Positions 16,329-19,595 of a stretch of DNA of 64,000 bases are shown piece after piece. Within the stretch, counting starts at the first letter, position 1. Each line of letters begins with the position of its first letter. The stretch is from contig CAVYRW010000004.1 in the NCBI GenBank assembly GCA_963771045.1, forward strand, positions 1,056,001 through 1,120,000, in the 5' to 3' direction. The position numbers and the translations under genes were made by a program. The notes beneath the pieces are model-generated. The model had not been told where the DNA came from. It did no database searches and worked only from the letters and a program-made list of their open reading frames with translations. The stretch comes from Waddliaceae bacterium (GTDB lineage Bacteria > Chlamydiota > Chlamydiia > Chlamydiales > SLFE01).

Positions 16329-19300
16329 ATGGACTCGGGAAAAAATATCGCCTCAACTTCAGAAAAGCTTATTGCCAAAATAATCAAATACAATGAAACA
16401 GGCACAAACTGTGTCTGGCTCAATCCACAGGATTTTGATCGTTTAAACGCCCCTTTTGTCAGAATTGCCGGCAGAGTCTATAAAGCAGTGCGGGCAGAGT
16501 GGCTTAAAGAGTCCGGCACAGCAGGCCTGTCCCATAAGCAGCAAACAGACCTCAAAGAGGCGGTGAATCATAAAAATCTTGTTGTCATTTCCCCTTTCCG
16601 TCCATCGGAAACCAATCACAGAATTATGAATTCACTGACTTTTGCTTTAGATCTTCCTGAAGGCAAGAAAGAGCTTGAAGAGAGTGTGATTATCGATTCG
16701 GGCGAGCTGACCGCATTCATTCATAAAATCTTTGATGGCCACTATTTGAAGTTAGATCAAAGCCTGCGGATATGTTTCAAAAACCGAATTTTATCATTAT
16801 CGCTAGAAAGAGGAGAGGGGATAAAAACTCCCCAAAGCCACAACTTCTTTAATAAGATTGCTGAAAGAACAAAACTTTATTTTAAGACTCCTGATGACTT
16901 GCAAATTTTTCTGATCGCAAGGCAGCCGGTAAACGACAGGTTGACATTCACGTTCAATGTTTCAATCAAAAAAGAGGAACAGAAGAAAAGGACGGATTTT
17001 GATGCAAAAATGAACCGGGAACAATTGCTTTTTCGGGAAATCGCAAAAAAATATCATCAAATACAATCCTATAAGGAAGTTCCTCACCCCCTTCTCTTTT
17101 CTGAAGAAAATCTTAAAAAAACGATTCTCGGCAAATTGCAAAATCAATACATCAATGCGAAAACGACCAGGATTTTCTATCATGACGGGTGTCAAATCAA
17201 GGTTGTTTTAAAAGAAGTTTCAAAAGGGGAGGAAAAATTTTCCGGAATTGTACGCATTGGCGGCAATGCCGCACTGTGTCATAAAGCCTTTTACCTGTCT
17301 CCCAAATCAAATATTCAGCTCGAATCCTCGCAATTGCTGGAAATAGTTAAAGGAAACCCCTTAATAGCTGCGGCAGTTAAGATTAAACTGGATGAAGTTT
17401 TGACTCCTCTGAGAAGACGCAGACGCAAGTGGATATCGGTTTCTGCAATCAAAAGGGAAATCATGAAAAAGCTAGACAGGTTTGTCCTGGGAACCCGATT
17501 CCATATTTTTGTCGATGAATTTGAATATGCTGTTGAAATCGACAGTGTCAAGCCCTTGCCTCGCAGTCAAGGAGGTAAAAGCCACTGGAAAATAGATAAA
17601 GAAACAAAGATAGAACTCTTGCCGCATCCTGTTCTTAAAAAAACACTTGTATTTGACGATGCCGCTCGAAGCCTTAAAAAAATCACGTTAAAAATTGAAT
17701 CCGAGATAAAAGACATGGATCCGGACGAGCTGCGAGAGGCCATTTTGCATGATATTCCCAAGAAAATTTGTACGGGGGAATCTTTTACGATCAGTTTGAG
17801 AGGGGGCAAACGAGTCTGTATTGTCGTTGACTCTATGGCGTTCTATGATTCTCAGTTGAAGCAAAATTACCTCGGTTTTGTCGATAAGGAGAAAACAAAA
17901 CTAAAACTTGTCGGGAAAGAGGGGGCCATAAAGAAAAGAGATTCAGCGAAAATTCTTGATCCTGTTATAGCTTTAAAAAAAATAGATTTACTCGGTCCCA
18001 CCGAAGATCAAATCAAGCTGGCAAAAAGCCTTCTTCTTTATAACCGGACCGATCTGAAAGACCTCATGAAACAGTTTGGTATTAAACCTGCAAAAGGGGT
18101 GATGCTTTATGGTCCGCCGGGAACAGGGAAAACATCGTTTGCTGAAAAATTTGCCAAAGTAGTCCTTGATGTTCCAATGAATAGAATAACCTTTATATCT
18201 GCTGATGATTTAAAAGATTCTCTCCTTGGGGGAACCGAAAAGGCGATTCGCGGCTTATTCAAAAAACCGAAGGAAGCAGGTAAAAACGGGCCGCTTCATG
18301 TTGTTGTGATTGATGAGGCCGATTCTATCGGAGGAACAGAAGGGATCACTCAAAACTTCGATCATAACTTTATCAATGCACTGAAATCACAGCTAAGCGA
18401 AATTCAGGAGATGAATGTCATCGTCTTTTTGATTACTAATTATCCGGAACGTTTCGATAAGGCTTTGATTAGAGACGGACGGATAGATCAAAAAGTCATG
18501 TTCGGCTTGCCAAATAGAAAAGGAAGAAAAGCAATTTTTGATCATTATGTCCGCGCTTTAGTGAAAAATAATCGTCTTGCAGAGGACGTCGATCTGGGCC
18601 GTTTGGCATCCATGACAAACGGCATAGCCGGTTCGGGGATTGAAAATATCGTCCGAACGGCATCTCTTAACAGTGTATTAGATGATAAGACAAAAGTGAC
18701 AATGGCTGACTTTCTGCTTGCATTTGAAGAAGTTGTCAACCCGTTTAAGCATGGCCGGGTAATTCCAAATGATTCCGATAAAATTCAAAAATTAAGCCCT
18801 CGTGCTGCGCTGGAAGAACTTGGGATTGCTTTGCCAAAAGAAACTTTCCATCAAATCGAGCCAATTGTAGGCGCTTATAGAACAGGCCCCAAATTCGGCT
18901 TGAAGCTGCCCAGAGGAATAATTGTCAATGGTCTGCCGGGTACCGGAAAGTCAACTCTTGCAAGAGCTGTCATTCAAATGCTTGGAGTTCAGAGCCACCA
19001 TTTAAAAATCCTCGATGCCGGCAGTATTGTCAATGAATTCAGAGCTAATAGAAGGAAAAATTTCAAAGATTTTTTCATCGCGGCAAAACAAGCGGGAGAA
19101 TCTCCCGATGACGCCGATCAACTTTATGTGCTGATGATTGAAAATATTGAACTTCTGGATCAGGGTATCCTTAGCCAGTTGCTAGAAGAAGTAGATCAAC
19201 TCAAACATCTCGACAACTTGTTTTTAATCGCCACAGCAAACAGAGGCGGAGTCTTGACAACATATTCCGCCATGCAGAAACTGATCCAGCCCGGAAGATT

Positions 19301-19595
19301 CCCGACAGAAATAAAGTTGGGCCTTCCCGAATTTTCCCAGCGCATGGAACTCCTCAAATTGTTGACAAAACAGATGCAAGAAAAGGGGGGATTAGACGAT
19401 GGTGTCAGTTTAAACACTCTTGCCAGTCTTACAGATGGCTTTACTATCTCGCAAATCAAAAGCTTTGTGCGGGATGCCTGGTCCTATTCTTTGGTCAGAG
19501 CTAAGGAAGGTACGGGAAAAATCATCATAGATGATTTTTATGAAGCTTTTAAATACCAATCAGGGGAGTTGAAGTTAAAATCGATGTACGGGTAA
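16329..19595 (+). CDS. NSF/Cdc48-like AAA+ ATPase with two AAA modules
   Basis: D1 has GPPGTGKT, LHVVVIDEAD and DKALIRDGR. D2 has GLPGTGKS and a degenerate Walker B (VLMIEN). The N-region resembles an NSF N-domain. Confidence 0.85.
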   Translation: MDSGKNIASTSEKLIAKIIKYNETGTNCVWLNPQDFDRLNAPFVRIAGRVYKAVRAEWLKESGTAGLSHKQQTDLKEAVNHKNLVVISPFRPSETNHRIMNSLTFALDLPEGKKELEESVIIDSGELTAFIHKIFDGHYLKLDQSLRICFKNRILSLSLERGEGIKTPQSHNFFNKIAERTKLYFKTPDDLQIFLIARQPVNDRLTFTFNVSIKKEEQKKRTDFDAKMNREQLLFREIAKKYHQIQSYKEVPHPLLFSEENLKKTILGKLQNQYINAKTTRIFYHDGCQIKVVLKEVSKGEEKFSGIVRIGGNAALCHKAFYLSPKSNIQLESSQLLEIVKGNPLIAAAVKIKLDEVLTPLRRRRRKWISVSAIKREIMKKLDRFVLGTRFHIFVDEFEYAVEIDSVKPLPRSQGGKSHWKIDKETKIELLPHPVLKKTLVFDDAARSLKKITLKIESEIKDMDPDELREAILHDIPKKICTGESFTISLRGGKRVCIVVDSMAFYDSQLKQNYLGFVDKEKTKLKLVGKEGAIKKRDSAKILDPVIALKKIDLLGPTEDQIKLAKSLLLYNRTDLKDLMKQFGIKPAKGVMLYGPPGTGKTSFAEKFAKVVLDVPMNRITFISADDLKDSLLGGTEKAIRGLFKKPKEAGKNGPLHVVVIDEADSIGGTEGITQNFDHNFINALKSQLSEIQEMNVIVFLITNYPERFDKALIRDGRIDQKVMFGLPNRKGRKAIFDHYVRALVKNNRLAEDVDLGRLASMTNGIAGSGIENIVRTASLNSVLDDKTKVTMADFLLAFEEVVNPFKHGRVIPNDSDKIQKLSPRAALEELGIALPKETFHQIEPIVGAYRTGPKFGLKLPRGIIVNGLPGTGKSTLARAVIQMLGVQSHHLKILDAGSIVNEFRANRRKNFKDFFIAAKQAGESPDDADQLYVLMIENIELLDQGILSQLLEEVDQLKHLDNLFLIATANRGGVLTTYSAMQKLIQPGRFPTEIKLGLPEFSQRMELLKLLTKQMQEKGGLDDGVSLNTLASLTDGFTISQIKSFVRDAWSYSLVRAKEGTGKIIIDDFYEAFKYQSGELKLKSMYG

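Follow-up and report, generated by a model that had tools for sequence, protein, structure and literature searches.

What a chlamydial cell would do with an ATPase resembling the eukaryotic NSF/Sec18 protein is the question raised by one gene in a 64,000-nucleotide stretch of a Waddliaceae genome (contig CAVYRW010000004.1, positions 1,056,001 to 1,120,000; hereafter, the window). This gene, located at 16329..19595 on the + strand of the window, starts with ATG and encodes a 1088-aa protein, referred to here as P0001, with the domain architecture Nn-(Nc)4-D1-D1'(degenerate)-HbYX. The first-pass annotation of the locus described an NSF-type AAA+ ATPase and a candidate effector of host membrane traffic; it mentioned neither the C-terminal HbYX motif, nor a paralog encoded at 38678-41209, nor the fact that the family had been described before (PMC9546365). 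The tail suggests another answer: P0001 could be an exported, NSF-derived AAA+ ring whose HbYX ends dock on the 20S proteasome of the host, a reading whose probability we put at about 0.55. Since the family already appears in PMC9546365, the novelty here lies in the HbYX tail and in the proteasome mechanism proposed for it.

The C-terminal HbYX motif in P0001 and its relatives

The P0001 sequence ends in M-Y-G with a Ser before it (19584..19592, + strand), a form of the hydrophobic residue-Tyr-any residue (Hb-Y-X or HbYX) motif through which PAN, the Rpt subunits, and Cdc48 bind to the 20S core and open it (PMC11475706, PMC5070193). Tail statistics were compiled for the best 150 of the 479 family representatives, of which 129 with lengths of at least 700 aa were kept and 21 shorter ones were set aside. 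Hb-Y-X ends are found in 73 of these 129 proteins and Hb-F-X ends in another 21 (94/129 together), and 9 more members end in Y-Hb-X; among 994 background genome open reading frames (ORFs) of at least 300 aa, there are 14 Hb-Y-X and 18 Hb-F-X ends, two of which belong to P0001 and its paralog P0107. In proteasome-free bacteria, 0.72% of proteins end in HbYX (PMC11475706). All 10 virus-like members end in Hb-Y/F-X, and no HbYX-type end was detected in 76 true NSFs (ORFs that contain two Walker A motifs and end in a stop codon, of 82 collected).

The Tyr or Phe residue is found at position -2 in 97 of the 129 tails, at -1 in 5, and at -4 in 5, a fixed placement that would be expected of a pocket reading the free carboxylate. 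Of the 23 members that have two or three AAA modules, 16 carry the motif at the C terminus and none at the corresponding internal site, which indicates that selection acts on the free C terminus. At position -4, Ser (30 tails) and Gly (28 tails) are frequent, and several ends read L-S-Y-F/M-x, close to NLSYYT, the optimised activator of the human 20S proteasome, whose activity benefits from Ser at P4 and tolerates Phe at P2; in multivalent activators, Tyr at P3 is unnecessary (PMC8907193). The family tail variants (Phe at P2, Tyr at P3, and Ser/Gly at P4) follow these human-20S preferences. The Pfam family PF00227 (proteasome/HslV) gave weak matches in 4 of 401 Chlamydiota genomes and none in the genome that carries P0001 (G000) or in any of the 27 family-bearing genomes, so that a 20S partner would have to be that of the host.

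The N tails of many relatives carry a second, putative signal, absent from P0001. A K[KR]x[KR] pattern resembling a nuclear localization signal (NLS) is present within the first 45 aa in 47 of the 129 members (shuffle mean, 7.6; maximum, 15), and a bipartite NLS-like pattern in 34 (shuffle mean, 0.5; background, 6/994); by a looser pattern, 8 of 10 virus-like members have NLS-like tails. These tails are disordered and rich in Ser, Pro, and Thr.

In the proposed role, P0001 would be delivered by type III export into the eukaryotic host and form a ring, predicted from its arginine fingers only, whose tails would then dock on the host 20S and open its gate. Typical family members, in which the aromatic pore loop is intact, would act as ubiquitin-independent unfoldase caps that feed chosen host proteins to the proteasome. 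Their substrates would be host proteins, probably nuclear ones, given the NLS-like N tail in about a third of the family, and the Nc array would replace SNAP as the substrate-binding part. Since P0001 itself has lost the D1 pore-loop aromatic residue, as well as the pore loops and catalytic base of the second module (see below), it is likelier to be a gate opener or blocker than a lone motor: it would more probably open or occupy the proteasome gate, or partner the paralog encoded at 38678-41209, than thread substrate alone. A division of labour with this intact-motor paralog, or a mixed ring of the two, can be envisaged.

Several observations weigh against this role. The M-Y-G end lacks the Tyr at P3 wanted by the monovalent human-20S rule and satisfies only the relaxed rule for multivalent activators (PMC8907193). 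The HbYX motif is also found on proteasome inhibitors and assembly factors (PMC11475706) and therefore leaves the direction of the effect unfixed. No form of the motif is seen in 23 of the 129 relatives, about 8 of which look truncated (short distance from Walker A), and complete genes of one genus (loci L012 and L046; genomes G179 and G193) end in Gly-rich tails without HbYX, the L012 and L046 tails being natural loss variants of the motif. The family rows share ancestry, and the counts given above are not independent events. In P0001, only ~10 residues precede the folded domain, with no N-terminal NLS tail, and the motor is degenerate. In addition, a 1088-aa multidomain ATPase is a large cargo for type III secretion. 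No ATPase is named in the available part of the report on the 19-protein Waddlia host-cytosol proteome, a shallow and cytosol-only data set (PMC7143554).

The tail could also be read by other partners. P0001 might mimic the tail of host p97/Cdc48, binding PUB/PUL cofactors or some other C-terminus reader and serving as a rival segregase or decoy, as PUB domains do bind the p97 tail and the P0001 N domain has the p97-N fold (Z 14.6). However, the tails recognized by PUB domains carry acidic residues before the Tyr, and Asp and Glu make up only 7.6% of the family residues at positions -7 to -4. Eukaryotic Cdc48 ends likewise (P0026, D-D-L-Y-N; PMC5070193), but the Phe and Y-Hb-X variants suit the 20S rules (PMC8907193), and such mimicry appears improbable.

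Comparably low odds attach to the tail being a self-latch that keeps the oligomer together in place of the lost D2 ring, in a protein that remodels some other host substrate (e.g., chromatin) or a bacterial one. In favor of this reading are the 90 of 129 members that have a single AAA module and no hexamerising D2 of the NSF kind, and the position of the gene next to pyrG-kdsB, conserved in three genomes of the family-level group. However, the motif stays with the free end when degenerate second and third modules are present and is lost from internal positions, synteny is absent at the other loci compared, and giant viruses hold members with the same full architecture, which argues for action in the eukaryotic cytoplasm or nucleus. 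Among the viral proteins, that of locus L053, which was outside the profile, matches positions 71-564 (E 2e-33), and a Moumouvirus protein is the top structural match (554 columns).

NSF ancestry of the N region and AAA modules

The ORF at 16329-19595 and the motifs quoted for it in the first-pass annotation are all in place: TNCVWLNPQDF at residues 26-36, IDSGEL from residue 122, and GPLHVVVIDEAD at 654-665. Pfam recognizes two AAA stretches in P0001 and leaves its first 540 residues without any match; the CDC48_2 domain was detected in 8 of the 29 family N regions from which an N-region profile was built, and an atlas search gave CDC48_N/CDC48_2 clusters at 0.88-0.90, taken as a lead only. 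Compared with 177,635 PDB sequences, the profile yielded 9 matches at E<=10, of which 8 were NSF/Sec18 (E 1e-11 to 1e-6) and the ninth was a chance hit (E 2.3); p97 and VAT were not among them. In the AlphaFold model of P0001 (pLDDT, 80.8; pTM, 0.61), residues 11-197 match NSF-N with a Z score of 18.4 and a root-mean-square deviation of 2.6 over 176 residues, ahead of p97-N (Z 14.6) and Pex1-N (Z 14.2). P0001 thus has an NSF-type N domain composed of Nn and Nc, and the resemblance to the NSF double-psi barrel and Nc subdomain that had been noticed by eye is real.

The Nn subdomain (residues 11-92; 16359..16604, + strand) is an NSF-type double-psi barrel (HHalign, 97.5% to NSF Nn and 5.6% to Cdc48 Nn). 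It is followed, all on the + strand, by Nc unit 1 (residues 97-200; 16617..16928; 98% to NSF Nc and 88% to Cdc48 Nc), which lies within the Z 18.4 match; unit 2 (residues 204-343; 16938..17357; 52% and 8%), the weakest one, with a charged helical insertion at ~216-247 and scores of 85-96% against the other units; unit 3 (residues 344-444; 17358..17660; 85% and 53%); and unit 4 (residues 446-535; 17664..17933; 96% and 76%). The four units are homologous to one another (HHalign, 85-98%), each is closer to NSF Nc than to Cdc48 Nc, and they follow a repeating strand-helix-strands pattern in the model, so the estimate of about four Nc-like units before D1 holds, with units 2-4 resting on an alignment-based model and profile comparisons. 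In some relatives, including a Waddlia protein, the last three Nc units are repeated once more, giving a second profile match. Unit 3 contains a basic loop, RRRRRK (residues 362-367; 17412-17429, + strand), that is shorter in P0002 and absent in P0003, and could be an internal NLS.

The D1 module (17976..18737, + strand) retains Walker A (595-602), the catalytic E663, sensor N704, R715, and R718, and has an NSF-like helix insertion ahead of Walker B. Its pore loop 1, however, reads L-L-G, with the aromatic residue of the family norm (W/Y-Hb-G) lost; L-L-G is common to P0001-P0003, and the aromatic residue is kept in most relatives and in the paralog. The D-G motif before sensor 1 is also lost, and both losses are common to the orthologs at 78% and 46% identity.

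The second AAA module (18801..19559, + strand) keeps Walker A (868-875) and has E-N in Walker B (IEN, 937-939), an unrecognisable pore loop 1, a deleted pore loop 2, and no catalytic base. The first-pass annotation had called this module a D2 with a degenerate Walker B and arginine finger; IEN and QPGR (987-990) are indeed there, but only the first arginine finger is lost (Q987), R990 being kept. Since the module groups inside the family in the tree and scores 5.6 bits with the NSF-D2 profile, 105 with NSF D1, and 134 with the held-out family D1, it is a duplicate of D1, and its degeneration merely parallels that of NSF D2.

In phylogenetic trees, which included 22 NSF D1 modules from metagenome and viral loci and were built without PAN/Rpt rows, the family modules cluster with NSF D1, separately from Cdc48, AFG2, Pex, and FtsH; locus L051, whose N region is unrelated, and locus L043, whose N region is short, were excluded from the family alignments. 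The support for this group is an SH-aLRT value of 99 in the 111-row tree, 100 in an 80-row mixture-model tree (a quick search, with 31 of the 111 rows dropped as long or redundant), and 100/100 in a bootstrapped tree of 38 rows. The P0001 modules fall in neither the Cdc48 D1 clade nor the Cdc48 D2 clade, and the NSF-like character originally ascribed to D1 stands. In the 111-row tree, NSF D2 and the degenerate modules were joined (branch length, 2.98), which was treated as long-branch attraction. NSF D1 is monophyletic (99/99), with the family beside it (77/92) and not inside the sampled NSFs, so that no eukaryotic donor is identified; the proposal of horizontal acquisition retains the patchy, eukaryote-linked distribution of the family but gains no donor from the trees.

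Raw scores are less clear-cut, and the NSF assignment is based on the N domain, the trees, and the insertion common to the family and NSF. P0001 D1 scores nearly the same with the Cdc48/AFG2-D2 profile (129) and with NSF D1 (132), the paralog D1 scores higher with the former (186 versus 173), and P0001 D1 on the PAN model reaches 118 bits, far below the cut-off of 500 that is set for a whole protein. A VAT/p97 identity, favored by a whole-protein PDB search (E 7e-55 versus 1e-34 for NSF), was rejected because the whole-protein score sums two canonical-type modules.

Compared with eukaryotic NSF/Sec18, P0001 thus shares the Nn+Nc fold, the placement of D1 in the trees, a helix insertion ahead of Walker B, and the intact D1 catalytic residues, but differs in having four Nc units instead of one, in lacking an NSF-type D2 and the SNAP-binding Arg, and in having gained the HbYX tail and lost the D1 pore-loop aromatic residue. 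NSF contacts alpha-SNAP via R10, R67, K68, and K104 (PMC11532144). The R67 column has Arg in 43 of 45 NSFs and in only 9 family rows; P0001 has Q72 and T73 at the positions of R67 and K68, and the K104 column is not conserved or is gapped. A role as an exported mimic of NSF, taking apart or sequestering SNARE complexes of the host and so steering vesicle traffic round the inclusion, which the first-pass annotation had favored, is accordingly very unlikely despite the NSF ancestry of the N domain and D1, the SNARE, Rab, and SM genes held by family-bearing giant viruses (PMC9546365), and the chance that host SNAP could serve: with the R67 equivalent lost, the K104 region unconserved, the second AAA module not an NSF D2, and no SNAP gene found in the G000 genome (90.6% complete), it also accounts for neither the HbYX tail, missing from NSFs, nor the NLS-like tails.

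Family distribution and comparison with known systems

At E<=0.001, the N profile matches 479 representatives (clustered at 50% identity), the weaker end of which probably includes true NSFs; 127 match at E<=1e-30. A homolog search at longer lengths gave no match. Of the 400 Chlamydiota genomes scored, 27 gave family matches, 3 of which were weak or fragmented, and none came from the 29 genomes of the small-genome Chlamydiota group f4; most of the strong genome matches are the source sequences of the profile itself.

Neveu et al. (2022) described divergent "type 2" NSF-like proteins of unclear function, in one- and two-AAA forms, in megaviruses and five chlamydiae (PMC9546365). These belong to the same family, with an extended N region and D1 homologous to those of P0001; the Waddlia protein WP_013181706.1 from that study is P0312 in our set, and its alignment with the paralog in the window has an E value of 5e-59. 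The available part of the text of PMC9546365 assigns them no function, contains no occurrence of HbYX or proteasome, and has nothing on NLS or Nc repeats, although its Figure 4 may draw several N domains. Likewise, no link of the family to HbYX, the proteasome, or the nucleus was found in the largely open-access literature searched, including the available part of PMC13365592; the ProEnd database may list the proteins without comment.

PAN, Rpt2/3/5, and Cdc48/p97/VAT resemble P0001 in combining a classical AAA module with a short Hb-Y-X tail, and PA200 and PI31 offer a comparison as HbYX proteins that are not ATPases. Unlike these activators, P0001 is of NSF ancestry, is encoded without a 20S of its own, the partner being presumably that of the host, and shows no OB or coiled-coil domain in the model of its N region. 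More tentatively, at somewhat less than even odds, environmental chlamydiae and giant viruses may share a parasite-encoded proteasome cap in which an NSF descendant and the host 20S make up a cross-kingdom, ubiquitin-independent AAA+ protease directed at chosen host proteins. The accompanying history, in which SNARE recycling was dropped while HbYX, a signal for nuclear import, and extra copies of the substrate-binding domain were gained, is put forward with the same reserve.

Microbes are known to bring about the destruction of host proteins through ubiquitin ligases, adaptors to 26S subunits, and proteases of their own. No AAA+ cap that a parasite makes for the 20S core of its host was found in the literature searched; if real, such a cap would represent a different route. 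NSF, thought to have lost its proteasome link on splitting from Cdc48 (PMC5070193), would then have regained it. The proposal also supplies a testable function for an orphan family common to Mimiviridae and chlamydiae, and the family provides more than 100 natural tail variants for the study of 20S gate opening.

Other architectures were also observed. The G177 protein encoded at L137:3869-6112 has no Nn or canonical Walker A but still ends in H-Y-F-T; further forms are a three-AAA member (P0240) and a two-AAA member with seven Nc units (P0186); and the family gene at L138 (G228:C1) is split into several pieces. A related ATPase at L043:46-2397 (G314) has a short N region and a degenerate first and active second AAA module, and ends in S-R-L, a peroxisomal-type signal, in place of HbYX. 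Viral loci L141, L226, and L229 encode canonical two-AAA type 1 NSFs that lie inside the eukaryotic NSF clade and have no HbYX.

Genomic neighborhood and other features of the window

The P0001 gene is flanked by a pyrG-kdsB-glycosyltransferase block on one side and an RNA methyltransferase gene on the other. Its GC content is 41.3%, versus 44.6% for the genome. The product is 78% identical to that of the congener G249, where neighboring genes show 88-95%, and 27% identical to that of a confamilial genome, where neighbors show 65-80%; the gene has thus diverged faster than its neighbors. The congener, whose locus matches at 77% identity, is a Waddliaceae metagenome-assembled genome, and the P0001 genome has a type III export-gate gene, in agreement with the chlamydial setting assumed at first pass. 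The paralog P0107 (38678..41209, + strand; 843 aa) has the same N region, one AAA module with an intact W-V-G pore loop, and an H-M-Y-V end, and is 27% identical to P0001 across an alignment of 866 columns (E 5e-83). In G249 and G395, the P0001 ortholog co-occurs with a one-AAA paralog whose pore loop is intact, and the contig that encodes P0003 apparently carries one too. Among the plasmid records listed (60 of 241), none showed an evident family member.

Head-to-head with this paralog in G000, G249, and G395 is a gene (34914-38393, - strand) that is represented in the window by three overlapping ORFs (309, 590, and 310 aa) that match successive parts of a 1242-aa ORF in G395 (L048), with two frame changes. 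It has no Pfam family and is either a pseudogene or an assembly error. The block at 24037-34358, missing from the same place in G249 except for its last genes, encodes SET domain, beta-lactamase-family, and cupin proteins, a cupin-tRNA-synthetase-like fusion, an FAD oxidoreductase, a lysine/ornithine N-monooxygenase, a lysine aminomutase-like radical SAM protein, an ATP-grasp-linked protein, and a methyltransferase. It looks like a small-molecule biosynthetic cluster, possibly for a compound with an N-N bond, to judge from the enzyme pairs in it. Farther along, a Legionella-type major outer membrane protein (42348-43466, + strand), a NodZ-like fucosyltransferase (49535-50362, - strand), and a 1590-aa RHS-repeat protein (54521-59293, - strand) are encoded among many insertion sequence (IS) elements, including IS66, Mutator, IS1, DDE, and IS605/TnpB types.

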